The position numbers were made by a program, and so were the translations under genes. From a virus, in IMG/VR virus record IMGVR_UViG_3300050501_000129: DNA of 64,000 nt. One strand, given 5' to 3'. Shown piece by piece: positions 5,145-63,859 of this stretch. The notes below the pieces were generated by a model, which saw only the letters and a list, made by a program, of their open reading frames with translations, had not been told where the DNA came from and ran no database searches. The stretch's first letter is position 1. Each line of letters starts with the position of its first letter.

Positions 5145-6374
5145 CTACAGCAGGGTCGGCGCGGGAATCGGTAGGATCCAGTGGCCGCCGTCGATCGTGA
5201 ACTGCTGCTCATTACGCATGATTGAACCGGCGTAGTTCCACGCGAGTAGCAGGTAGGTGTCAGTAATCTCATGATCGACGACGGTCTGGTTGTAGATCTT
5301 TATTCCCGTTCCCGGAATGTAGCGCTCCTGCTTCGCTTCAGTCGTATCGGTGACGTAGCGTAGCAGCTCACCGTCGATGCCACAGAAGTTAAGCAGCGTC
5401 GTCGCCTTGGCCGGCGCGCCGTATCCAACAACTGCGTGACCGGCGTCACGTTCGTCAAGCAGCAGCTGCAGAAGCCGTTGTTTGAGCCGCTCAGCACGCC
5501 CCTGGAGCCCGAGGTAGACGTTCGTGTCCGTTAACCAGGCTTCAGAGCTGACGACGCTGGAGACTCGTCTAGAGACCTGACTCTGCCGGCGCAGCTTGAC
5601 ACGCAACGAGCCACCCTGTCGGTCAGTAAGCTGCGCGTCAACGACGTACAAGCCGTGGTTACGCGCCGCAGAGCGCAGACTGGTCAGCGAGAAGAAGTTG
5701 CGATGCTCGTGGTAGACCAGGTCGAACGCGTTATTGAGGATCAAGTCAGGTAGGTACTGCACCTCGACATACACGGTACCCTTGAACGCCAGCAACTCAT
5801 CGATACCGGCGAAGACGTCAGAGACGCTCTCGACGTGCGCCAAGACATGGTTCGCGATGATGACGTCTGCGGGCCCGTGCTGCGCGTGAATCTCGTGTGC
5901 CAGGTTGCGGCCGAATGGCTTGACGACCGTCTCGACGCCGCGCTGCGCGGCGACCTCAGCCGGTCCGTCAGCTGGATCAACTCCAATGACACGCCAGCCC
6001 GCGCGCAAGAGCAAGTGTGAGAAATCACCGTCGTTTGACCCGATCTCAACTACGAGCGGCTTGCGTGCCAGTCCGCTGTCGCTTAGATTCCACTCGTTAA
6101 GAACGTCGTTGGCGTAGCGCGCATGATAGAGCGACAGCGGCTTGGATGCACTTGAGTAGAACGAGTAGCCCGAGCCGAATAGGTCCGGCACCACCTCGAG
6201 CAGCTGAACCAGGTGGCAGCCGGCGCAGACCGCCAGCTGCAGCGGGTAGTGCGTCACCGTCTCGTTGTCCTTGGTGTAGTTGTCCGCGATCGGCGACAGT
6301 CCCAAGTCAAGAACCAGGCGCAAGTCGTCGTAGTTGCACGCGCTGCAGCGCGTCCTCTTCATCGTTGTCCCCAC
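5145..6374 (-). CDS. C-methyltransferase-family enzyme (NDP-hexose C-methyltransferase-like)
   Basis: 409 aa. N-terminal Zn-type CSAC...CAGCHLVQL, a central SAM domain (VVEIGSNDGDF), and the LVYHEHRNFFSLTSL motif typical of the TylCIII-like architecture. Confidence 0.75.
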   Translation of the reverse strand: MGTTMKRTRCSACNYDDLRLVLDLGLSPIADNYTKDNETVTHYPLQLAVCAGCHLVQLLEVVPDLFGSGYSFYSSASKPLSLYHARYANDVLNEWNLSDSGLARKPLVVEIGSNDGDFSHLLLRAGWRVIGVDPADGPAEVAAQRGVETVVKPFGRNLAHEIHAQHGPADVIIANHVLAHVESVSDVFAGIDELLAFKGTVYVEVQYLPDLILNNAFDLVYHEHRNFFSLTSLRSAARNHGLYVVDAQLTDRQGGSLRVKLRRQSQVSRRVSSVVSSEAWLTDTNVYLGLQGRAERLKQRLLQLLLDERDAGHAVVGYGAPAKATTLLNFCGIDGELLRYVTDTTEAKQERYIPGTGIKIYNQTVVDHEITDTYLLLAWNYAGSIMRNEQQFTIDGGHWILPIPAPTLL

Positions 6375-6997
6375 TTCGAGTTGAAGATCTCCTCGGCACG
6401 CAGCCGCATCTCGTGAGATTTCTCGGTCTTATAGCCGAAGGTCGTATGATGATAAGTGTCGATGTCAGCGACGTAGACCCGCTTGCCGGCGTGCCTTGCC
6501 TCGAGACAGACGTCATCGTAGCCGTGAAATTCATAGCGTTCATCGAAGCGCAGCTCCTGAATCGCCCACGGCGAGAACACCATAAATGATCCCTCAACGA
6601 TGTCGACGTCTCCCGCAGACCGGTCACCAAAGTGAAGAAGTGCGCTGTCGGTCGACTGGTGACCGATCGGGTCGACGTCCCACCAGTTAAGTGACGGTCC
6701 GCCCCCGGCGACACCGATGATTGCGATTTGCGGATCTGCCGCAAAGACGGAGATAATCATCGGTTCTGTCAACGGATCAGTCATCTCGAGGTCATCGTGA
6801 AGTAGAACGACGGCATCCAAGTCATAGACTCGAAAGCCGTCTAGAATCGCGTTATACGCCACCGAGATCGAAATCTGGTTAAACGCCGTTAGGACCGGTT
6901 GATTCTTTGGGATCCGCGGCTCGACGTACCGGTGAAACTTGTCCCACGTGCCGACGCAGCAGCCGTAGCCGATCTTCACCATGGCCGCCGTCCCCAC
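6359..6997 (-). CDS. GT-A-like glycosyltransferase (tentative)
   Basis: 212 aa with LLHDDLEM (DxD-like) and a GT-A-like length. Translationally overlapped on both sides within the cassette. The family assignment is weak. Confidence 0.5.
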   Translation of the reverse strand: MGTAAMVKIGYGCCVGTWDKFHRYVEPRIPKNQPVLTAFNQISISVAYNAILDGFRVYDLDAVVLLHDDLEMTDPLTEPMIISVFAADPQIAIIGVAGGGPSLNWWDVDPIGHQSTDSALLHFGDRSAGDVDIVEGSFMVFSPWAIQELRFDERYEFHGYDDVCLEARHAGKRVYVADIDTYHHTTFGYKTEKSHEMRLRAEEIFNSKWGQR

Positions 6998-7683
6998 TTA
7001 AGCGCGAACGTCTCACCGTCGCGGCCGGCCTGCTCAGCGAGTGCGCCGCACGTCGTCGAGTTGGCTAGCGTGTTGAGCGGCGCCTCGCCCGGTAGCATCA
7101 GAACGCCGCCGGCTTGGATCGCTTGCCACTCAAAGTCAGTGTCGCCCCACCACCAGTGCATCTTCTCGTCGGCGCGCAGACCAAGCTCGCCGCGAACAAC
7201 GAACGCCCACGGACACATACGAGTCATGATGTTGCCGTCGATCTGCGTCTTTAGGTGTGGCATGCCGGCAGTCGTTTGTGTGTACGTGCACGCGATCGCG
7301 GGAACGTTCAGATGCTTTAGCGACTCCGTCGTCCGAAACAGCGCTCCAGCAACGTTGTCATACCAATTGGCGGGCAGTGATGTGTCGTCATTGAGGACCG
7401 CGACATCCCACAGCTTTTCACCAAACGCCTTGACGGTCATCTCGATGACGTTAAACGCCGTGTTCCACATCTTATAGAGGTGAGGCGGCTGCTCGTCATC
7501 ACGGTGAACGATCGTCTTGACGTCCGGAACCTGCATACGCAGCCACAGCGAAGACAGAGGTAGGTCACTGGCATTGTCGATGACGTAGACGAAGTCGACC
7601 TGGCCAGCTAGCTGGCGCAGCAGCGAGATCAGCTGTTCGTGACGGTTACGTGTTGGGATAATCGCGTATCGGGGGACTCTCAC
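6976..7683 (-). CDS. glycosyltransferase family 2 (GT-A)
   Basis: 235 aa. YAIIPTRNRHEQLISLLRQL and VYVIDNASD are typical of the GT2 N-terminus. Confidence 0.8.
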   Translation of the reverse strand: MRVPRYAIIPTRNRHEQLISLLRQLAGQVDFVYVIDNASDLPLSSLWLRMQVPDVKTIVHRDDEQPPHLYKMWNTAFNVIEMTVKAFGEKLWDVAVLNDDTSLPANWYDNVAGALFRTTESLKHLNVPAIACTYTQTTAGMPHLKTQIDGNIMTRMCPWAFVVRGELGLRADEKMHWWWGDTDFEWQAIQAGGVLMLPGEAPLNTLANSTTCGALAEQAGRDGETFALKWGRRPW

Positions 7684-34681: not shown

Positions 34682-35095
34682 CTATGAGAATATCTTATCC
34701 AGGGCGTCGTTGACGGACTTGCGCAGCGTCTTCGGCGCGATCGCGTTGACGTCATCTAGGAAGCGCGCGACGTCCAGCGCGTTGCAGACCAGGTACGTGT
34801 GCTTCTCGCCCGTCGGTACGTGCGTAGCCAGCCGCAGCGACAGCAGCGTGGGATCGGACATACGCAGCTGCAGCGACGCGACACCGCTGGGCATCGGGAT
34901 ACCCGGAACGCAGCTCGCCAGCGCGTCCGAGAAGTGCTGGCGGTCAAGCTGCCAGAACTCGTCGGTGCCCTCCGCGTGCAGGGTCAGCGCGAACGGGTCG
35001 TCATCCTCGTAGGTCCACATCACCGATATGCCGCCATGATCATGCATCTTTCGGCAGCTGACGACGGTCAAGATCCGCATGTTCTTCGTAGTCAT
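34682..35095 (-). CDS. SsgA/SsgB-like sporulation-specific cell division protein (SALP)
   Basis: 137 aa from ATG 35095 (GAGGAGAG RBS). WTYEDDDPFALTLHAEGTDEFWQLDRQHFSDAL and PTLLSLRL..HVPTGEKHTYL..ALDVARFL follow the SsgA-like family pattern. The longer track ORF (to 35266) is an upstream shadow. Confidence 0.7.
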   Translation of the reverse strand: MTTKNMRILTVVSCRKMHDHGGISVMWTYEDDDPFALTLHAEGTDEFWQLDRQHFSDALASCVPGIPMPSGVASLQLRMSDPTLLSLRLATHVPTGEKHTYLVCNALDVARFLDDVNAIAPKTLRKSVNDALDKIFS

Positions 35096-35108
35096 CTCTC
35101 TTCTCTCC

Positions 35109-35258
35109 TCACCTGGCGGTTGCGGTGATTTCCGCGACGCAGTCCGGGCAGAGCAGCAGCTCGACGCCGTTGTCCGCGCGGACGGAGACCAGTTCGGTCT
35201 CTGGCACGATCTCACCCATCCGCTCGCAGCGGCCCAGGTGATCAGTGTACTCGTACAT
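35109..35258 (-). CDS. possible small Cys-containing protein (49 aa)
   Basis: GAGGAG RBS precedes the ATG at 35258. The product is MYEYTDHLGRCERMGEIVPETELVSVRADNGVELLLCPDCVAEITATAR. It is below the track cutoff. Confidence 0.45.
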   Translation of the reverse strand: MYEYTDHLGRCERMGEIVPETELVSVRADNGVELLLCPDCVAEITATAR

Positions 35259-35286
35259 CTTCTCACTCCTCACTTTAGCTTACGCG

Positions 35287-35360
35287 TAGACCGCGCGGGG
35301 CTCGAACCCGCGACCTCCGGATTGAGAGTCCGGTGTGCTAACCAGCTGCACCAGCGGTCC
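35287..35360 (-). tRNA. tRNA-Glu (anticodon CUC)
   Basis: Hand-folded 74-nt cloverleaf: acceptor GGACCGC/GCGGTCT (G1-U72), D stem GTGC/GCAC, anticodon stem CCGGA/TCCGG with loop CTCTCAA, T arm GCGGG-TTCGAGC-CCCGC. CCA is not encoded. Confidence 0.8.
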
Positions 35361-35443
35361 CTAGTTGAGGCGGTGTACGCAGCTTGTTTCCACGTACAGG
35401 CCTTGTGCTCCTTCGGGTTTTTCTCCCTCTCCGACACTCAACG

Positions 35444-35516
35444 TGCATGATGCAGGATTCGAACCCGCCCATTCTGCTTGGAAGGCAGACATGCTAGCCA
35501 CTAACATCAATCATGC
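35444..35516 (-). tRNA. tRNA-Gly (anticodon UCC)
   Basis: Hand-folded 73-nt cloverleaf: acceptor GCATGAT/ATCATGC, anticodon stem TCTGC/GCAGA with loop CTTCCAA, T arm GCGGG-TTCGAAT-CCTGC. Confidence 0.85.
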
Positions 35517-49633: not shown

Positions 49634-49709
49634 CGCGGAGTGGTGCAGCTCGGTCGTGCACGCCAGTCTCATAAGCTGGAGGTCGCCGGTTCGAATCCGG
49701 CCTCCGCGT
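49634..49709 (+). tRNA. tRNA-Met type (anticodon CAU; elongator or Ile-lysidine type)
   Basis: Hand-folded 76-nt cloverleaf: acceptor CGCGGAG/CTCCGCG, D stem GTGC/GCAC, anticodon stem CCAGT/GCTGG with loop CTCATAA, T arm GCCGG-TTCGAAT-CCGGC. C1-G72 is paired, so it is not initiator-like. Confidence 0.85.
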
Positions 49710-50031
49710 CGGGAAGATCCCCGGCCGTCGGCGGCCGTCGGGAATAGCAGGCTCGAGCGGAACAGACCGGTCCGAGACCATCCGGCGTCTTCCCGCGAGC
49801 CACAACTTAAGACTTAGGCCTACGTAGCCCCACGTGTCGGCTCTCTGGACGGGTTGAAGAGGGACGCATTCGTCTGGACCCAGCAGCGGCGTGACGGTGG
49901 CTTCAGTCCCGCGGCAGCTACGGTTAACGGGATGCGATGGAAGCGGCGTGCGCCGGCGCAAGGATATGGCGCTTCTCGGGTAAGGATTCCACCGGCGCAC
50001 AGAAGATGACCAGAGAAGAGAGGAGTGACAG

Positions 50032-51844: not shown

Positions 51845-52425
51845 TTTTTGAAGAAACGCGTATGCTACAATAAAAATTATGGATTTACATGCGCAAGTAG
51901 ATGATCTTTTTCCAGGCGATAAGAGAACAATGATAAGAATTCTTGTCCACGCTCTTATCGATTTAGAACAAATTACATCACTGGACTGTATGTGGAGTTT
52001 GTGTGTACTTCCCGGTATACCTCTTTCTCCTGCAGGTACGCGTAAAGCATGTGCAACATTAGATCACATTCAAGCACGTACAAACGGTGGATCGGACCAC
52101 TGGCGCAACGTTCAACTACTTCATCATACATGTAACATGCGTAAAAGTCATGATTTCACTGAAGAACATAGACAAAAAATTAGTGATGCGGTGCGTAAAC
52201 GCTGGCAAGATCCTGAGTATCGAGCCACTGTTGCGCCTAAAGTTGCAGCAAAACTTCGTGACCCAGAAGTAAGAAAACGAAAAAGTGAAGCAATGAAACG
52301 CCACTGGGCTGATCCTGAACGTAAAGCACAGCACTCAGCTAAGCTTGCACGCGGTGAAGACTGGCGAAGGGCAAGAAGTTAACTATGTTAATAATATTGG
52401 AAGGTCCTGATGGTTCTGGCAAGTC
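51845..52425 (+). mobile_element. AT-rich island carrying a free-standing HNH homing endonuclease
   Basis: There is an abrupt drop in GC by eye from the stop at 51844 to about 52425. The island contains the HNH ORF and extends into the first ~13 codons of the next gene. Confidence 0.65.
51879..52382 (+). CDS. HNH homing endonuclease with NUMOD-like C-terminal repeats
   Basis: 167 aa. HNH core LDHIQARTNGGSDHWRNVQLLHHTCNMRK. Repeated basic helices (EEHRQKISDAVRKRWQDPEYR, RKRKSEAMKRHWADPERK). Confidence 0.85.
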   Translation: MDLHAQVDDLFPGDKRTMIRILVHALIDLEQITSLDCMWSLCVLPGIPLSPAGTRKACATLDHIQARTNGGSDHWRNVQLLHHTCNMRKSHDFTEEHRQKISDAVRKRWQDPEYRATVAPKVAAKLRDPEVRKRKSEAMKRHWADPERKAQHSAKLARGEDWRRARS

Positions 52426-53479
52426 GACGCTGGCGCAGGAGATCGCCGCCGAGCTGGGCCGGACGACCAGCGACAGGGTCGAGATCTGGCACCGCGGCCG
52501 GCCGACCGGTCACCCGCTAGACGAGTACCTGCGGCCGCTGTACGGCTACCGACCCGGCACCGGTTACCACCTGATCCTGGACCGCTGGCACTGGGGCGAG
52601 GTCGTCTATCCGAAGATTCTCAACCGGCCGACGAGCCAGAACAGCGCTGTCTTCTGGGCGATTGAGGCGTATCTGCTGCGACTCGGTGCGTTGGTCATTA
52701 ACTGTGACAATAACTTCACGTTCCAGTATCACAACATCTACCGTGAACGCGAGCTTGACGGTACTTCCGACGCCTGGCAGATCACTCACTTGAACCGGAT
52801 TCGTGACGAGTTTTCTCGTATGATCTATCGCTCGGCGCTACCGTCGTTGACGTATTCCTACGGCCACGACCCCCAACCCAATATCATCGACTTAGCGCGC
52901 CGCTACGAGACTCAGGCACGTGAGCTCAACGACTTCGTGACGTACTCTGGTCCGGTCAAACCTCACATGCTGCTGCTCGGTGACGTTCGCAACCTGCAGC
53001 CGATCGATCCACTGAACTCACCGGCATTCGTTCCCACCAAGCAGTCGTCCGGTCACTTCCTACTCAAGTCGTTGACGTCTCTAACGTCCCGCACATGGGT
53101 GCACGGCGTCGGACTGGCCAACGTCAACGACGTCGACAACGTGTATAAACTATGGCAGACTCTCGGGCAGCCGTCAGTCGTCGCGCTTGGTAGGAAAGCC
53201 CACGCCCGTACTCTCTACGTGCTAAACCAGGAATATGGTGTCGTTCCCCATCCCCAGTACGTCCGCCGGTTTCACCACGGTAAAAGTGAGCAGTACGGCT
53301 GGCTCATCTGTCAGGCCAGCCAGACGAGAGAGGACTACAGCAAGTGGCCACAGTCATCCACGCCCGTGACGGGCGAACCGCCTACGTCGATGTCATCACC
53401 AAGCTCCGGCTCTTTGGCGTCAGCCGACCCAGTCGCAACGGCCCGACCCGTGACCTCGGACACACCACTATCATCCTAG
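52385..53479 (+). CDS. thymidylate/dNMP kinase-like P-loop domain fused to a UDG-superfamily-like domain
   Basis: 364 aa. N-terminus has ILEGPDGSGKST and LDRWHWGEVVY (Tmk-like P-loop and DR motif). The C-terminal ~170 aa have the UDG family-4-like layout (LLLGDVRN...PAFVP..SSGHFLL; VGLANVN; VPHPQYVRR) with altered catalytic residues. Confidence 0.7.
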   Translation: MLIILEGPDGSGKSTLAQEIAAELGRTTSDRVEIWHRGRPTGHPLDEYLRPLYGYRPGTGYHLILDRWHWGEVVYPKILNRPTSQNSAVFWAIEAYLLRLGALVINCDNNFTFQYHNIYRERELDGTSDAWQITHLNRIRDEFSRMIYRSALPSLTYSYGHDPQPNIIDLARRYETQARELNDFVTYSGPVKPHMLLLGDVRNLQPIDPLNSPAFVPTKQSSGHFLLKSLTSLTSRTWVHGVGLANVNDVDNVYKLWQTLGQPSVVALGRKAHARTLYVLNQEYGVVPHPQYVRRFHHGKSEQYGWLICQASQTREDYSKWPQSSTPVTGEPPTSMSSPSSGSLASADPVATARPVTSDTPLSS

Positions 53480-54204
53480 ACGAGCCGTGCGACGCGCTAC
53501 CTATCGACGTCGGTCGCGGGCTCAGCGAGCGGATCGCCGCGCTAGAGGCGATCCAGCTAGTTGGCGCCTTCTCTGACCCCGACTGGCTCGTCGAGAGGGC
53601 TCCCCAGCTGTCTCCCTACAGGGAGCCGTCCGGTGCGTTCTGGGGCGCGTACGGACGCCGGATCGGCTGGCAGATCCGCGACGCCGTCGCCAAGCTGCGT
53701 GCCGACCCGTGGACGCGCCAGGCCGTCGCCACTCTCTGGGATCCCATGTACGACAACTACCCGGAGAAGCGTGACTACCCGTGCACCGTCGCGCTTGGTT
53801 TCACCCAGCAGCCGACGTTTACCAGTGACCAGCTCAACATGCACGTCACGATGCGCTCAAACGACGCGTGGCTTGGACTACCGTATGACATGTTTCAGTT
53901 CACCCAGCTCTTCCAGACCGTCTGCCGCTGCCTGGACGTCCGACCCGGCACGTACACTCACACCGCGTGGTCGCTGCACCTGTATGACCGAGACGTCGAC
54001 CGCACGCACGACGTCGCGCTGGCCGGCGACACCGGCTACCGGTTTGACCCGACCGGTTTCGGTGAACCGAACATGTCGTTCACTGACGTCAGCCAGCGAG
54101 CGCACGTGATCGCGCTGACCCCGGACAAGATCGACTGGGAGCTTACTCCGAGTGAGAGGTGGTACCGTGACGCTATCCATGGCGATCCGACCAAGTTGGC
54201 ATGA
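53344..54204 (+). CDS. thymidylate synthase (ThyA)-family pyrimidine C5 (hydroxy)methylase, Asp at the specificity position
   Basis: 286 aa. RQAVATLWDP, YPC (catalytic Cys), MRSNDAWLGLPYDMFQF and HLY align to ThyA RRIIVSAWNV, APCH, QRSCDVFLGLPFNIASY and THLY. The gene overlaps the upstream gene by 136 nt. Confidence 0.85.
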   Translation: MATVIHARDGRTAYVDVITKLRLFGVSRPSRNGPTRDLGHTTIILDEPCDALPIDVGRGLSERIAALEAIQLVGAFSDPDWLVERAPQLSPYREPSGAFWGAYGRRIGWQIRDAVAKLRADPWTRQAVATLWDPMYDNYPEKRDYPCTVALGFTQQPTFTSDQLNMHVTMRSNDAWLGLPYDMFQFTQLFQTVCRCLDVRPGTYTHTAWSLHLYDRDVDRTHDVALAGDTGYRFDPTGFGEPNMSFTDVSQRAHVIALTPDKIDWELTPSERWYRDAIHGDPTKLA

Positions 54205-54664
54205 CGTGCGACTCGCGATGGCCACCGAGCTGGCCAAGCGCAGCCTGTGCAGCCGTGACCAGGTCGGCGCGGTGGTTGTCGACAAGTACAACAAGATCAT
54301 CGGTGAGGGCTACAACGGCCCGCCGCGTGGCTTCTGGCACGGTGGAGAGCCGTGCACCAAGTGGTGCCAGCGTACGATGAACTTTAAGCTCGCGGGTGAC
54401 GATGGACTTCATACAACATATGATGACTGTCCGTCACTGCACGCCGAAGCCAACGCCCTGCTGCAGGCCGACCGCTCGTTCTGCCTCGGCGGTACCATCT
54501 TCGTGACGAGCCACGTCTGCATGGGTTGTGCCAAGCTCATCGCCAACTCCGGCCTGGGAATGCTAGTCGTCCGATCCGTCGTCAAGGATCACCGACGCTC
54601 GGAAGAGGTCTACAACTTCCTGCGCGACTGCAAGATCGAGCTGGGTATCTGGGAGGACAGGTGA
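54167..54664 (+). CDS. dCMP deaminase
   Basis: Zinc motifs CPSLHAEANAL and HVCMGCAKLI (the HAE...PCxxC class). The start is ambiguous (GTG 54152, GTG 54167 or ATG 54179). Confidence 0.85.
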   Translation: MTLSMAIRPSWHDVRLAMATELAKRSLCSRDQVGAVVVDKYNKIIGEGYNGPPRGFWHGGEPCTKWCQRTMNFKLAGDDGLHTTYDDCPSLHAEANALLQADRSFCLGGTIFVTSHVCMGCAKLIANSGLGMLVVRSVVKDHRRSEEVYNFLRDCKIELGIWEDR

Positions 54665-56466
54665 CCGGTACCGGGGTACTTGACCGCGTCAAGCTGCACT
54701 ACATCGAGTCGTTCGACGACGTTCAGGCGTACATCGACTGGTTCTCCAACAAGGCTTATGATGACCCGATCGCCGTCGACACCGAGTCGACCGGCTTCTA
54801 CTGGCACCGTGATGACTACGTCCGGATGGTCCAGGTCGGTGACGAAGTCGACGGCTGGGCAATGCGCTGGGACCGATTCTCGGGCCTGTTCGAGGCGACC
54901 GTCGCGGTGCACGAGGGTCCGATCGACCTGATGAACGCCAAGTTCGACTACGCGTTCCTGCGCAAGGCCGGCGTCAAGCTTAGGCAGCCGCTGATCCGCG
55001 ACGTCGGTGTCATGTCGTACGTTCTCGAGCCGCACATGTCACGCGCGCTCAAGAACCAGGCCAAGCGGCACGTCGACCCGCGCGCCGGCACGCTCCAGTG
55101 GCAGCTCGACGAGGCGATCGGTGGTCGCAGCGAGTGGACGTGGGCGACGATCCCGCACGACTTTCCGCTGTACTGGCAGTACGCCGCGATGGACCCGGTG
55201 CTGACCGCTCTGATCCGTGAGCACCACTGGCCGCTCGTTCAGGAGCGCGCGCCGCGCGCCTATGAGATCGAGAACGAGTTCCAGTGGGTCGCGCTTAAGG
55301 CCGAGACGTACGGCGTCTGCATCGACGTCGACTACGCGGATCGGCACTACTCCAAGTTCACCGCGTACTGCGAGGACGTCGAGCGATGGTGTGAGAGTGA
55401 GTACGGCGTCAAGCCGGGCAGCAACCAGGCCATCGTGCGCAAGCTGGTCGAGCTTGGTTTCAGTGAAGATCACTACTTCTCTAAGTCAACCGCCAAGGGC
55501 GCGGTCGCGCTCGACTCTAGCGTCCTAGAAGTCATCGATCACCCGCTCGCGCAGGCGGTTCTCCAGCGGCGGCAGCTGCAGAAGATCGCATCAACGTACC
55601 TGCGGTTCTACGTCGGTCACGTCGACTCGAACTCGCTGATTCACCCGTCGATCAACACCGTCGGCGCGCTGACCGGCCGGATGACCGTCTCGGAGCCCAA
55701 CCTGCAGAACCTGCCGGTCCGCGGCACCAACCCAGCGCACAGGGTCGTCCGCAACTGCGTCGTCGCGCGGCCCGGTCACACGCTTATCATGGTCGACTTC
55801 GACCAGGTCGAGATGCGCGGACTGGCGATCGACTCCGGTGACGCCGGCTTGATCGCGGCGTTTCAGGCCGACGAGGACTTCTTCGTCTCGATCGCGCGCC
55901 AGGTCTACGACGACCCGACGCTGGTCAAGGCGGACCCGCGCCGGCAGCCGGTTAAGAACGGCATGTACGCCCGGATCTACGGCGCCGGGCTGGTCAAACA
56001 GGCCGCCACGGCCGGCGTGTCCGTCGAGCAGATGCGCTATGTCAACACGTCGCTGAACCTCAAGTTCCCGGGCATCGAGTCGTACGCGCGCGGCATCATC
56101 GACCAGGCGATCCGCGACGGTCGCAACGAGGGCGGACTGGCGTTCACGACCTGCTCGCTGACCGGCCAGCGTCACTACGCCGAGCGCGGCAAGGAGTACG
56201 CGCTGGTCAACTACAAGATCCAGGGATGGGCCGCCAAGCTGTTGAAGCTCAAGGCGCTCGAGTTAGACGCGGCCGGTCTCGGTGACTACATCATCGCGTT
56301 CATCCATGACGAAATCATCTTTGACATGCCGAATGACCTGGTCCGTGACGCGGTGCACACCATTCAAAAGATCATGAACGACACGACGATGTTCCCCGTC
56401 GCGATCACGGCCAGCGTCTCGACGGGGCAGCGGTGGGGAGAGAAGAAAGAGTGGAGTGAAGATTAA
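54661..56466 (+). CDS. polA: DNA polymerase I (family A) with 3'-5' exonuclease domain
   Basis: The GTG at 54661 makes a GTGA overlap with the deaminase stop. Exo I IAVDTESTGF; motif A MVDFDQVEMRGLA; motif B RRQPVKNGMYARIYG; motif C FIHDEIIFD. Confidence 0.9.
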   Translation: MTGTGVLDRVKLHYIESFDDVQAYIDWFSNKAYDDPIAVDTESTGFYWHRDDYVRMVQVGDEVDGWAMRWDRFSGLFEATVAVHEGPIDLMNAKFDYAFLRKAGVKLRQPLIRDVGVMSYVLEPHMSRALKNQAKRHVDPRAGTLQWQLDEAIGGRSEWTWATIPHDFPLYWQYAAMDPVLTALIREHHWPLVQERAPRAYEIENEFQWVALKAETYGVCIDVDYADRHYSKFTAYCEDVERWCESEYGVKPGSNQAIVRKLVELGFSEDHYFSKSTAKGAVALDSSVLEVIDHPLAQAVLQRRQLQKIASTYLRFYVGHVDSNSLIHPSINTVGALTGRMTVSEPNLQNLPVRGTNPAHRVVRNCVVARPGHTLIMVDFDQVEMRGLAIDSGDAGLIAAFQADEDFFVSIARQVYDDPTLVKADPRRQPVKNGMYARIYGAGLVKQAATAGVSVEQMRYVNTSLNLKFPGIESYARGIIDQAIRDGRNEGGLAFTTCSLTGQRHYAERGKEYALVNYKIQGWAAKLLKLKALELDAAGLGDYIIAFIHDEIIFDMPNDLVRDAVHTIQKIMNDTTMFPVAITASVSTGQRWGEKKEWSED

Positions 56467-61907: not shown

Positions 61908-63173
61908 GTGAAGAGACGAATCGGCTACGCCAAGCTCGGCCGCTCGATGCCGCTGCAGCTCGGTGACTGTGGCTCTAACGGCGGTGACGTTGAGATGATT
62001 CCGACGCTCCAGCTGCTCGCCGAGCGTCACCCAGACGTCGAGTTCGTTATCATCGGTCGCAACTCCGGTGAGGAGCCGGCGCGCGTCGGCCTACCTGCCA
62101 ACATCACCAATCCGTGGACCGGTTGGTGGCCCAAGATCCGCGCTGAGATGAACGCAGCGAAGCTGAATCATCCGGCTCTAAGCGTCGACGAGCACCTACG
62201 ACTTGCCGAGATCTTTGACCGGTACACACGCGACGCCTTTGTGCTGCTTGACGGCGTTGTTATGTGGCTTGGCCAGCACGGCACAACACACACTCCGCTG
62301 CCGTCAATTAAAGATCGCAGCGTCTTGACCAAACCATATGACTCATTGTCACTCTACGGCGGCTACCTGCTACGTGGCGTCAACGCGTGGCGCGACGTCG
62401 ATCCGCATAATCGTGAGGAGGTGCTGCTCAACCCAGACCCGCGCAACGTGCCAAAGTACCGGGACGGCCGGTATCCGTGGCGGCACGCCGTCTTGAGCCA
62501 GCACGACCAGGTAAACGCGATTAAGCACGAGGAGGGTGACCGGGTCGTTTCGTCGACGGTTCTCAGCGTCTACTCGCGCCTGGAGATCTCGGGTCTGCTC
62601 CCTAGTACGCCGTTCACCAACCTCATTAAGTTCAATGACGACCACAACCGACCGCACGACTTCGGCATCGTGTTCAATGAGACACGGCGTGACGTCGCGC
62701 TCGAGAAGTCACGACGTTACATCCTAGAGAAGTGGGTGTTCCCGCTGTCTCCCGGCTTTATCTACGGACAATGGAGCGACGCAACTCGGCGGCAGCTCGG
62801 CATCCGGATTGAACCGATCGACGTGCTGAACTACTTCAGTACGATCCAGACCACGCGCTGCACGTTGACGACCCCGTCATCTGGCTCCGGCTGGGCGACT
62901 GCCAAACCGTGGGAGTGCTTCGCCGCCGGCGTGGTCTGCTTCTTTCACCCAGCGTACGACGACCAGAACCACATACTCAACGACGCACCCTACGCGCTTG
63001 CGTCGTGGCTGCGCGTCCGTCACCCGATTGACCTACGTGACCGGATCCGCTACATGCGAGACAACCCAGAGTATTGGCAGGAAATCGTTCGGCTTCAACG
63101 CAATCACTACCTAAAAGCTATCGACGAGCTCAGCTACATAACAAAGATCGAACAGAGACTGGGACTGGACTAA
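61908..63173 (+). CDS. GT-B-like glycosyltransferase (tentative)
   Basis: 421 aa. The C-terminal TTPSSGSGWATAKPWECFAAGVVCFFHP resembles the GT4 PSxxEgfG..lEAmAxGxPV region. Confidence 0.55.
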   Translation: MKRRIGYAKLGRSMPLQLGDCGSNGGDVEMIPTLQLLAERHPDVEFVIIGRNSGEEPARVGLPANITNPWTGWWPKIRAEMNAAKLNHPALSVDEHLRLAEIFDRYTRDAFVLLDGVVMWLGQHGTTHTPLPSIKDRSVLTKPYDSLSLYGGYLLRGVNAWRDVDPHNREEVLLNPDPRNVPKYRDGRYPWRHAVLSQHDQVNAIKHEEGDRVVSSTVLSVYSRLEISGLLPSTPFTNLIKFNDDHNRPHDFGIVFNETRRDVALEKSRRYILEKWVFPLSPGFIYGQWSDATRRQLGIRIEPIDVLNYFSTIQTTRCTLTTPSSGSGWATAKPWECFAAGVVCFFHPAYDDQNHILNDAPYALASWLRVRHPIDLRDRIRYMRDNPEYWQEIVRLQRNHYLKAIDELSYITKIEQRLGLD

Positions 63174-63859
63174 TGGACGCGATAATCCTCGCCGGCGGGC
63201 GCGGCACCCGCGTCATGGAGCTGGCTCCCGAGTTCCACAAGCCGCTGCTGCCAGTCAACGGCGTCCCGATGGTGACGCTGGCCGTCGACCTGGCGCTGCG
63301 CGCCGGCGTCACGTGTCCCGTCGTCGTGGCCGCGCCCGCCAACACCGAGGCGATCTGCGGCGCACTGGACGGCCGACCCGCGTTCGTCGTCATCCAGCGC
63401 CAGCCGCTCGGCGCCGGCCACGCGCTGCTGCTCGGGCTGCAGGCCAGTCCGCGCCCGCTCGTCGATTGCGATCGGGTGCTCGTGCTACTCAGTGACAACG
63501 TCTCGACGGACACCGACGTCACCGCGGTGATGCAACACCCAACCGCGATCGGGATCCAGTACATCGAGCGGGTCAACGCGTTTCGCTTCGCGCGGCTGAA
63601 CGACGACGGCCGCTGGTGCGAAAAGGAACGCCTCAAGCTTGACGGTCCGCCCGTAGCGTGTTGGGTTGGACCGTTCATCGGCTGGCGCAACCGAATGGTG
63701 CGGGTGCTTGCCGAGGCGGTCGCCGCGCGCAAGCCGAATGAAGAGGTTTACATCGGACCCCACCTCGGTAACTTCATGTACAGCGAGACGAAGTGTCCCC
63801 TCGTGCCGGTCGACTCGCTCGACCTGGGCGTGACGGACGAGTACCGGAGGTTAACATGA
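63173..63859 (+). CDS. sugar-phosphate nucleotidyltransferase
   Basis: 228 aa from ATG 63173 (TAATG overlap with the upstream stop). AIILAGGRGTRV...KPLLPV is the GxGTR(x)n K signature of NDP-sugar pyrophosphorylases. Confidence 0.8.
   Translation: MDAIILAGGRGTRVMELAPEFHKPLLPVNGVPMVTLAVDLALRAGVTCPVVVAAPANTEAICGALDGRPAFVVIQRQPLGAGHALLLGLQASPRPLVDCDRVLVLLSDNVSTDTDVTAVMQHPTAIGIQYIERVNAFRFARLNDDGRWCEKERLKLDGPPVACWVGPFIGWRNRMVRVLAEAVAARKPNEEVYIGPHLGNFMYSETKCPLVPVDSLDLGVTDEYRRLT

Follow-up and report, generated by a model that had tools for sequence, protein, structure and literature searches.

What is the role of a phage protein in which a nucleotide kinase is joined to a domain resembling a DNA glycosylase? 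The question is raised by an open reading frame (ORF) in the IMG/VR virus record IMGVR_UViG_3300050501_000129, from which a stretch of 64,000 nucleotides was analysed (hereafter the window), covering most of a ~68-kb actinophage-type phage genome. The encoded protein, with the N-terminus MLIILEGPDGSGKST, possesses a P-loop kinase domain, a C-terminal domain and a tail that reads into the ORF of a ThyA-like enzyme (Table 1). Our results suggest that the C-terminal domain is a divergent member of the uracil-DNA glycosylase (UDG) superfamily which retains the residues of a base pocket, and that the kinase belongs to an operon for pyrimidine modification and replication. Taken as a whole, the reading of this protein as a kinase for modified deoxynucleoside monophosphates (dNMPs), fused to a DNA-binding and probably active glycosylase-like module and followed by a tail that is a by-product, seems to have about an even chance of being right.

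The C-terminal domain and the uracil-DNA glycosylases

Since direct sequence searches found no UDG, the link between the C-terminal domain and this superfamily was made through structure prediction and through a homologue, gp315 of Bacillus phage G. AlphaFold2 (AF2) gave a mean predicted local distance difference test (pLDDT) score of 92 and a predicted template-modelling score of 0.86 for the whole 364-residue protein. A Foldseek search with this full-length model returned kinases only (YorR, PPK2 and Tmk structures, probability 1.00), and the C-terminal domain was therefore modelled separately (residues 176-326; pLDDT 88.5). The separate model is a four-stranded parallel sheet in an alpha/beta/alpha arrangement, in which the motif series LLLGD, PAF, SSG, LAN, VVALG and VPHPQY is placed at the ends of strands beta1-beta4, as a UDG fold would require, with the equivalents of motifs A and B at the ends of beta1 and beta4. 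Its best PDB matches by fold are family-4 UDGs, namely 1ui1 of T. thermophilus (E 1e-4, query TM-score (TMq) 0.59), 1l9g of T. maritima and 1vk2, followed by about 25 UdgX entries and then by family-5 UDG, SMUG1 and MUG. Down to rank 36 the matches all belong to the UDG superfamily; the one at rank 25 is a polymerase with a fused UDG, the family-A enzyme of phage phiLo. In a library of viral structures the same query retrieved UDGs, UDG-PolA fusions and two proteins of ~330 residues, one of them gp315. A de novo TIM-barrel that matched the domain in the PDB sequence search was considered spurious. The original prediction had proposed the fold and motif order of family-4 UDGs for the C-terminal half and had called for a structural comparison with the UDG families; that comparison agrees with the proposal.

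The gene for gp315 (AEO93574; JN638751, 25928-26923) is unannotated in GenBank and bridges the window family to the canonical UDGs. Both of its domains align with the family profile (hhalign 98%, E 3e-13, 275 columns), and it matches PF03167 (E 1.5e-12, above threshold) as well as Thymidylate_kin. Searched by sequence against the PDB, its C-terminal domain finds the family-4 UDG 1l9g (E 8e-5), and the protein spans the entire 362-position profile of PHROG 761 (E 3e-67). The placement of phage G in loop regions by MAFFT is unreliable, and hhalign and phmmer alignments were used instead. Through gp315 and hhalign, LLLGD200VRN corresponds to the VGE(A/G)PG motif A of family 4, PAF215 to GRPF, SSG223 to GxAG, LAN246 to the Asn after beta2 and VVALG to (I/V)VxLG, while H289PQYVRR295 is the counterpart of the motif B of family-4 UDGs and UdgX, HPS(S/A)(L/V)(L/V)R, with the His and the final Arg in register. 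Phage G has a more canonical motif A (VVAQNPGG) that is seen by the Pfam UDG model, whereas the window family, with GD/E-x-R-(H/N), is missed by Pfam; motif B is KHPAYVKRF in phage G and VPHPQYVRRF in the window.

These models assign the C-terminal domain to the UDG superfamily, with family 4 and UdgX as its nearest relatives. It shares with them (1ui0/1ui1, 1l9g and M. smegmatis UdgX 6ail) the fold (TMq ~0.6), the order of motifs and the counterparts of the UdgX residues E52, N91, H178 and R184. However, it is ~40 residues shorter, is fused to a kinase, gives no sequence match to these proteins, and lacks the [4Fe-4S] cysteines, the Pro-Gly of motif A and the Ser of motif B.

The functions of these residues are known from other enzymes. 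In UdgX, the motif-A glutamate E52 activates water or the nucleophile, N91 and H178 hydrogen-bond the uracil and R184 of motif B binds the DNA backbone (PMC10359453). A phenylalanine stacks on the flipped base, as cited for F55 of the S. tokodaii UDG (PMC11078745). Conservation was counted across 174 distinct aligned homologues, some of which are only ~29% identical, and the counterparts of E52, N91, H178 and R184 are fixed among them. Position 200 is acidic throughout (D in 156, E in 18), and F215, H289, P290, R295 and F296 occur in 174/174. N246, which is the counterpart of UdgX N91 and S. tokodaii N82, is found in 173/174, as are R202 and Q291. Position 294 is Arg in 170 and Lys in three homologues, position 249 is always acidic (D in 162, E in 12), and G199, S222, G223 and Y304 are conserved as well. 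Across the family, motif A takes the form G-D/E-x-R-(H/N/G), with the Gly and the acid kept and the Pro-Gly lost. Motif B takes the form HPQ(Y/F)VRR, in which the His, Pro and final Arg are invariant and Val is present in 111/174; the Ser of the canonical motif has become Gln, and its small residues an aromatic residue or Arg. No invariant Cys that could serve as a [4Fe-4S] ligand was found in the C-terminal domain of the 174 homologues, and the alignment with the UDGs of T. maritima, T. thermophilus and S. tokodaii shows no counterpart of the CRPP...C segment that follows the Asn.

The motif-A acid is exchanged only conservatively, and the Asn, the His of motif B and the Arg for the DNA backbone hardly vary at all, so the pocket is under strong selection; in the alignment as a whole, both active-site regions of the protein show strong purifying selection. 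The pattern is that of a working pocket for DNA and a flipped pyrimidine, not of a relic. The domain had earlier been called degenerate, with altered catalytic residues, a description at odds with the retained acid and with the near-complete conservation of N246, H289 and R295. We suggest, at a lower level of confidence than for the role of the kinase, that in its most likely role the domain would bind DNA and turn out a pyrimidine, and, again at lower confidence and by analogy, that it is probably an active glycosylase-like module excising uracil or another non-cognate pyrimidine.

Two known systems come near to this proposal. In SP15-like hypermodified phages, active UDG domains that act on deoxyuridine are fused to PolA (bioRxiv 10.1101/2025.03.26.645540); these likewise combine a UDG fold with a replication or nucleotide enzyme in phages with modified pyrimidines. 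Their partner, however, is a polymerase and their activity on deoxyuridine has been demonstrated, whereas in the window the partner is a kinase, PolA is a separate gene and the activity is a predicted one. Brig1, an anti-phage glycosylase, excises alpha-glucosyl-hydroxymethylcytosine by means of an aromatic residue that stacks and an acidic one placed at the Watson-Crick face (PMC11078745). It is a family-4-like UDG fold retuned to a C5-modified cytosine, but it stands alone and serves host defence, and we liken it to the window domain by description.

The same residues bear on another explanation, in which the UDG-fold domain is a non-catalytic anchor that tethers the dNMP kinase, and with it the complex synthesising deoxynucleoside triphosphates (dNTPs), to the replisome, much as the UDGs of poxviruses and herpesviruses serve as subunits of the replisome. 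The loss of the motif-A Pro-Gly, the motif-B Ser and the Fe-S cluster would fit such a role, as would the conservation of R294/R295 and R202 and the presence of PolA two genes downstream. UDGs are also associated with replicative polymerases in several viruses, and the fusion to PolA in SP15-like phages is a further precedent. However, an anchor has no need for a carboxylate restricted to D or E, or for invariant F215, N246 and H289 lining the UDG base pocket, and we therefore consider this explanation improbable, though the most plausible of the alternatives weighed here.

The kinase domain and the proposed pyrimidine-modification operon

The N-terminal domain appears from its sequence relationships to be a bona fide nucleoside monophosphate (NMP) kinase-type enzyme of the YorR clade. 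A profile of 114 family sequences matched the SPbeta protein YorR in the PDB (2axp/3kb2; E 6e-13, residues 2-159) and, more weakly, thymidylate kinases and PPK2. YorR is thereby the closest solved relative of the kinase domain, but it is a single-domain protein. Residues 1-165 match positions 20-201 of the PHROG 761 profile (E 4e-14), and the AF2 model shows a five-stranded parallel sheet (strands 2-6, 31-36, 61-66, 102-107 and 154-157). Among the 174 homologues, G7, K13, R67, G71 and Y75 are invariant, while D66 and E72 are each found in 173, D9 in 172 and R122, the LID Arg that aligns with the RVRGD of YorR, in 167. The Tmk-like character proposed earlier for this half is accordingly confirmed by the profile and fold matches together with the P-loop and the DR motif. 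The P-loop Asp of Tmk contacts the free 3'-OH of deoxythymidine monophosphate (dTMP) in thymidylate kinase structures. D9 of the window kinase seems to be the same P-loop Asp, and we count it in favour of a kinase acting on free dNMPs.

In the databases, the members of this family are thymidylate kinases: the label is carried by the homologue in Actinomycetia phage DSL-LC01, by gp315 in RefSeq and by PHROG 761. Weak matches to the Tmk models of Pfam and NCBIfam agree with the label, according to which the C-terminal domain would be of no particular importance. However, the score against TIGR00041 is far below the cut-off of this dTMP-kinase equivalog (23.6 vs 83.25), and the window protein is therefore not a dTMP-kinase orthologue. 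The score against PF02223 is also too low (19.1 vs 27 bits). By Pfam, only the P-loop of the N-terminus was matched, always below threshold, and some homologues exceed the Tmk cut-off (34.7 bits for the homologue P0081 and 28.9 bits for gp315). Moreover, the C-terminal domain is as conserved as the kinase, and the ThyA-like partner has a cytosine-type Asp, so dTMP cannot be presumed to be its product. A plain thymidylate kinase is thus a distinctly unlikely description of this protein.

The genes around the kinase-UDG ORF suggest another substrate. On the plus strand they are arranged in the order HNH endonuclease, kinase-UDG, ThyA-like, deoxycytidine monophosphate (dCMP) deaminase, PolA, RuvC-like, SNF2 helicase, PD-(D/E)XK nuclease, RecA-like AAA_24, a 190-aa ORF to which no function is assigned, a glycosyltransferase (GT)-like ORF and a sugar nucleotidyltransferase. 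The best PDB match of the ThyA-like protein is the CMP hydroxymethylase MilA (E 3.5e-11 vs ~1e-7 for true thymidylate synthases), and its closest phage proteins are annotated or known pyrimidine hydroxymethylases. It has the catalytic Cys (DYPC), an Asp in LGLPYD at the position of N177 in E. coli thymidylate synthase (TS), and an RSND that keeps D169; the DYPC also places an Asp at the position of L143, as in the deoxyuridine monophosphate (dUMP) hydroxymethylase M6 gp58. The N177 position of TS sets the specificity for uracil or cytosine, and D169N marks 5-hydroxy-dCMP synthases (PMC13326640). All related loci with a readable motif have the RSND...PYD signature, and so do Gordonia phage Forza and gp319 of phage G. 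We therefore predict from these residues that the enzyme is a dCMP hydroxymethylase and neither a thymidylate synthase nor a 5-hydroxy-dCMP synthase. The GT-like ORF and the sugar nucleotidyltransferase ORF further downstream are a probable DNA glycosylation module of the same pathway, and DSL-LC01 has an annotated glycosyltransferase at the place syntenic to the former. Their presence makes the operon look like a T4-style route to (glycosylated) 5-hydroxymethylcytosine (hmC) DNA, a route that needs a kinase for the modified dNMP.

Several observations tie the kinase family to this step, the first being the constant position of its gene directly upstream of that for the predicted hydroxymethylase, in most cases with an overlap. 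The second is Forza gp180 (262 aa), in the region 5366-6999 (-) of NC_070763, which belongs to the same kinase family (hhalign 99%, E 7e-18) and has no UDG domain; its gene shares 4 nt with a ThyA-like gene that carries the Asp signature found in the window. In place of the UDG domain it carries a different C-terminal extension of ~80 residues. The neighbouring Forza gp181 was tested as a possible split-off UDG and is not a UDG. Third, 'nucleotide kinase' genes of the Tmk/YorR type lie beside cytosine-modifying TS homologues in RB69, DLP3 and RL38J1 (PMC13326640). These kinases (RB69 gp45, DLP3 gp78 and RL38J1 gp214) share with the window kinase the position beside a TS homologue, but they are single-domain proteins.

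The gene context thus favours the suggestion, made in the original prediction, that the kinase acts on a free hydroxymethylated dNMP as T4 gp1 does. The likeness to T4 gp1 is one of proposed pathway role. Neither the 60 listed PDB sequence matches of the kinase nor its 50 listed fold matches include T4 gp1 (1dek/1del), which has no UDG domain.

A second suggestion was that the protein is a kinase of DNA bases. The UDG-fold domain would then flip a 5-hydroxymethylpyrimidine, and the kinase would phosphorylate its hydroxymethyl group to give a leaving group for hypermodification, unless the two activities are coupled otherwise. The 5-hydroxymethyldeoxyuridine DNA kinases (5-HMUDKs) are likewise small P-loop kinases (PMC8989533), and the window protein would be their functional analogue, assembled from other parts. 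The fusion of the UDG fold to a kinase in every listed full-length homologue, the conserved DNA-backbone Arg and base-pocket residues and the setting in a pyrimidine-modification operon could also be taken to point in this direction. However, the 5-HMUDK M6 gp54 aligns with the window family over 19 P-loop columns only (hhalign, probability 67%), so that Walker A is all that is shared with this group (M6 gp54 and ViI gp67). The 5-HMUDKs act with aGPT-Pplase/AADT partners, and none was seen among the 25 window ORFs scanned against Pfam. Forza has the same kinase family beside the same ThyA-like gene without a UDG domain, the features typical of free-dNMP kinases of the Tmk type (P-loop Asp, DR motif and LID Arg) are kept, and glycosylation of hmC requires no prior phosphorylation. 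The fully conserved motif-A carboxylate favours excision over modification, and the C5 side of a flipped base is buried in UDG folds, where a second active site would probably find it hard to reach. The 5-hydroxymethyldeoxyuridine kinase suggestion is therefore not sustained by the comparison with M6 gp54 and Forza, and a DNA-base kinase in general seems unlikely.

We return to the modified-dNMP kinase with a glycosylase-like module, which would be an enzyme of two domains encoded in a phage operon for pyrimidine modification and replication. With moderate confidence, we propose that the kinase phosphorylates the modified dNMP from the downstream ThyA-like enzyme to the diphosphate. The substrate would be 5-hydroxymethyl-dCMP, given the predicted dCMP hydroxymethylase, or 5-hydroxymethyl-dUMP if the adjacent deaminase acts first. 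The kinase and ThyA-like genes are probably translationally coupled. The UDG-fold domain has retained the catalytic carboxylate, the Phe that stacks, the Asn that reads the base, the His of motif B and the Arg for the DNA backbone. It would flip a pyrimidine and, while the phage DNA is replicated, probably remove uracil or some other non-cognate pyrimidine from it, in analogy to the SP15-like PolA fusions. The fusion may in this way place the modified-nucleotide kinase at the replication fork.

Several points weigh against this proposal. The role of the kinase-UDG protein derives in every family member from sequence, model and gene context. Neither the window protein nor a C-domain profile of 52 sequences gave a Pfam (E <= 10) or PDB sequence match for the C-terminal domain, and the two dTMP-kinase cut-offs given above are not reached by the window protein. 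The loss of the Pro-Gly in motif A and of the Ser in motif B suggests that glycosylase activity should not be assumed. In RB69, it was a gp1-type dNMP kinase co-expressed with the TS homologue that led to 5-hydroxydeoxycytidine in E. coli DNA (PMC13326640), and in the light of this result the role of Tmk-like kinases in such clusters appears itself unproven. Finally, the fusion in every listed full-length homologue hints at a mechanistic coupling of the two domains that is tighter than simple co-localisation.

The tail and the overlap with the ThyA-like gene

The features noted originally at the 3' end of the ORF, namely a 136-nt overlap, a ThyA-like ORF in the -1 frame and a tail rich in Ser, Pro and Thr, were all recovered from the sequence. 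The ORF reads into the ThyA-like gene because the kinase frame has no stop in the first ~45 ThyA codons, as is seen in a high-GC subclade. Base composition gives an estimated probability of ~0.26 that an alternative frame stays open for 45 codons at 62% GC, and the long overlap is hence real but statistically unremarkable. The ThyA-like gene has its own GTG start at 53344, which is the only start codon upstream of the conserved N-terminus (a 65-kb relative, L002, has ATG there), and the AGGA of its Shine-Dalgarno-like site ends 9 nt before it. The codon TGG of the near-invariant W321 sits within (A/G)TGG, which is composed of the ThyA start codon and the next G. This sharing implies that the functional kinase-UDG protein effectively ends at the ThyA start.

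The length of the overlap varies among non-redundant loci from none to 136 nt, commonly 7-16 nt depending on the start counted, and the tails of homologues comprise 0-45 residues. Overlaps of more than 50 nt are almost exclusive to the high-GC subclade that includes the window. Those of at least 50 nt occur in 12/26 loci with GC >= 0.59 vs 1/26 below, but the rank correlation is not significant (Spearman rho 0.17), indicating that the effect of GC on overlap length is permissive only. Substitutions in the overlap were compared in three divergent pairs among the window and the loci L002 and L006; the kinase-only control comparison of the window with L002 was out of register from an indel and was ignored. 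Between 15 and 19 of 19-29 substitutions fall on ThyA codon position 3, which is position 2 of the kinase frame, so each of these changes is non-synonymous for the tail. In close relatives, 15-20 of 44 tail residues have changed vs 3-7 of 45 in the ThyA frame. The Ser/Pro/Thr tail is an incidental, non-functional read-through into the ThyA ORF.

These data also bear on a programmed -1 frameshift within the overlap, raised in the original prediction, which would produce a kinase-UDG-ThyA fusion protein. The long overlap in the window genome and the finding of ThyA in the -1 frame in 49/52 non-redundant loci would be in line with it. However, the sharing of (A/G)TGG by the start codon and the Trp codon by itself fixes the -1 phase, whose constancy is thus no sign of frameshifting. 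The overlap differs in length between homologues, changes in the tail frame are unconstrained, and ThyA has its own Shine-Dalgarno site and start codon. The upstream frame of the overlap contains no slippery heptamer X_XXY_YYZ and no homopolymer run >= 5. No in-frame kinase-ThyA fusion was found among 120 listed metagenome homologues and 150 listed representatives, all of which are <= 371 aa. Programmed frameshifting is therefore very improbable.

The starts listed for the dCMP deaminase (54152-54664) and PolA (54526-56466), both on the plus strand, are the first possible ones and give overlaps of 53 nt and 139 nt with the preceding genes. The tblastn matches of both genes in related loci begin further downstream than the listed starts, and the true start of the deaminase may lie downstream of 54152. 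Unlike the kinase/ThyA overlap, these two are probably artefacts of choosing the first start codon.

Distribution of the family and its significance

With the C-domain profile, 1,620 clusters were found among representatives at 50% identity (E <= 0.001). In the best 150 of the 1,620, fragments excepted, the domain lies at about residues 170-320 of proteins of 300-360 residues, and the lengths of 453 metagenome homologues likewise fit the two-domain form. The representative library also contains five short proteins of 143-170 aa. One of them, P0186 (164 aa), was checked in a Rosetta-stone test as a candidate stand-alone C-domain gene and is a gene-calling truncation, as tblastn recovers the full kinase and UDG ORF on contig IMGVR_UViG_3300043344_000002. 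Short family members should hence not be taken as stand-alone UDG-like genes unless their DNA has been checked.

Of 273 relatives in IMG/VR, 80 loci were examined, and as far as the contigs reach they share the gene order kinase-UDG, ThyA-like, dCMP deaminase, PolA, RuvC-like, SNF2, PD-(D/E)XK and AAA_24. The architecture is common in uncultured actinobacterial, mostly high-GC phages. Among cultured phages in GenBank, the two-domain form is found only in DSL-LC01 and phage G. The window has no close DNA relative among 50,697 GenBank phage records, and DSL-LC01 is the sole record among these with a protein match at E <= 1e-5 (WJZ48531; 33% identity over 308 residues). DSL-LC01 and the 65-kb relative also have the succession of kinase, ThyA-like, dCMP deaminase and PolA genes.

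Phage G and DSL-LC01 thus share with the window both the fusion of kinase and UDG fold and the kind of neighbourhood, with a D-type ThyA-like gene, a dCMP deaminase and glycosyltransferases. In phage G (JN638751 18188-29495), gp315 is surrounded by two alpha-glucosyltransferases, a glucose-1-phosphate thymidylyltransferase, an HAD phosphatase, a dCMP deaminase and a D-type ThyA-like gene. The latter lies four genes away from gp315, whereas the two genes overlap in the window.

The ORF upstream of the kinase (51879-52382, plus strand; PF01844, E 5e-7) ends 2 nt before the kinase start. It lies in a sharp low-GC island (0.42-0.44 vs ~0.62 in the flanks), and a relative was found by tblastn at the same position in only two related loci. 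This HNH ORF looks like a homing endonuclease that was recently inserted. Elsewhere, the window has three tRNA genes at 49634-49710 (+), 35286-35360 (-) and 35443-35516 (-), for Met (CAT), Glu (CTC) and Gly (TCC). It also has a DUF932 protein at 900-1865 (+; E 9e-31) and an ORF at 34682-35266 (-) whose similarity to SsgA, a cell-division protein of actinobacteria, is weak and below threshold (E 1e-3).

Table 1. Positions in the window of the kinase-UDG ORF, its domains and motifs, and the genes of the proposed pathway
Feature	Position	Strand	Remarks
Kinase-UDG ORF	52385..53479	+	364 aa, ATG start; kinase, UDG-fold domain and unconstrained tail
P-loop nucleotide kinase domain, YorR/Tmk-like	52385..52927	+	residues 1-181
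Walker A / P-loop GPDGSGKS	52403..52426	+	residues 7-14; fits GxxGxGK[ST]
DRWHWGE motif	52580..52600	+	residues 66-72; counterpart of Tmk DR(Y/H/F)
C-terminal UDG-superfamily domain (predicted), clusterless, family-4-like	52940..53344	+	residues 186-320
Motif A equivalent LLLGDVRN	52970..52993	+	residues 196-203, end of beta1
PAFVP with invariant Phe at base-stacking position	53021..53035	+	residues 213-217
LANVNDVD, Asn at end of beta2, conserved acidic residues	53114..53137	+	residues 244-251
Motif B equivalent VPHPQYVRRF	53243..53272	+	residues 287-296
GAGAGAGGA, Shine-Dalgarno-like site for the ThyA-like GTG start	53326..53334	+	inside kinase ORF; read from sequence
136-nt kinase/ThyA overlap	53344..53479	+	ThyA in +2 (= -1) frame relative to kinase
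Ser/Pro/Thr-rich tail inside ThyA-like ORF	53348..53476	+	residues 322-364, last ~43 codons; pLDDT 53-69, predicted disordered
ThyA-like gene, predicted cytosine-specific pyrimidine hydroxymethylase	53344..54204	+	PF00303, E 8e-17
dCMP deaminase gene	54152..54664	+	PF00383, E 2.5e-14; PHROG 174, E 1e-36; first possible start listed
GT-like ORF	61908-63173	+	Glyco_trans_1_2, E 4e-4 (weak)
Sugar nucleotidyltransferase ORF	63074-63859	+	NTP_transf_3, E 8e-12; overlaps GT-like ORF

No prior description of a kinase-UDG fusion was found in the searchable literature. The superfamilies of both halves are already known, and the fusion of a UDG to a phage replication enzyme has a precedent. What is new, in that it is not described in the searchable literature, is the combination of kinase and UDG, the divergent UDG lineage without a cluster and its fixed place in a cytosine-modification operon. 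A large family with a fixed position in a replication operon has thus been concealed in the databases under the name thymidylate kinase, and its conserved UDG-type module without an Fe-S cluster adds a lineage to the UDG superfamily. The fusion physically ties the synthesis of modified nucleotides to the recognition of bases in DNA. As an active glycosylase, the domain would be the second example, after the PolA-UDG fusions, of base surveillance built into the replication of phages with modified pyrimidines, and if it recognises hmC or hydroxymethyluracil it might become a tool for mapping modified bases. Should the protein instead prove to be a DNA-base kinase, phage hypermodification would make use of two classes of DNA nucleobase kinase that evolved independently, with this family as the second. 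For the phages themselves, the prediction is that DSL-LC01-like actinophages and Bacillus phage G carry (glycosylated) 5-hydroxymethylcytosine-type DNA, and in phage G the neighbourhood of gp315 predicts DNA of the glucosyl-hmC type.

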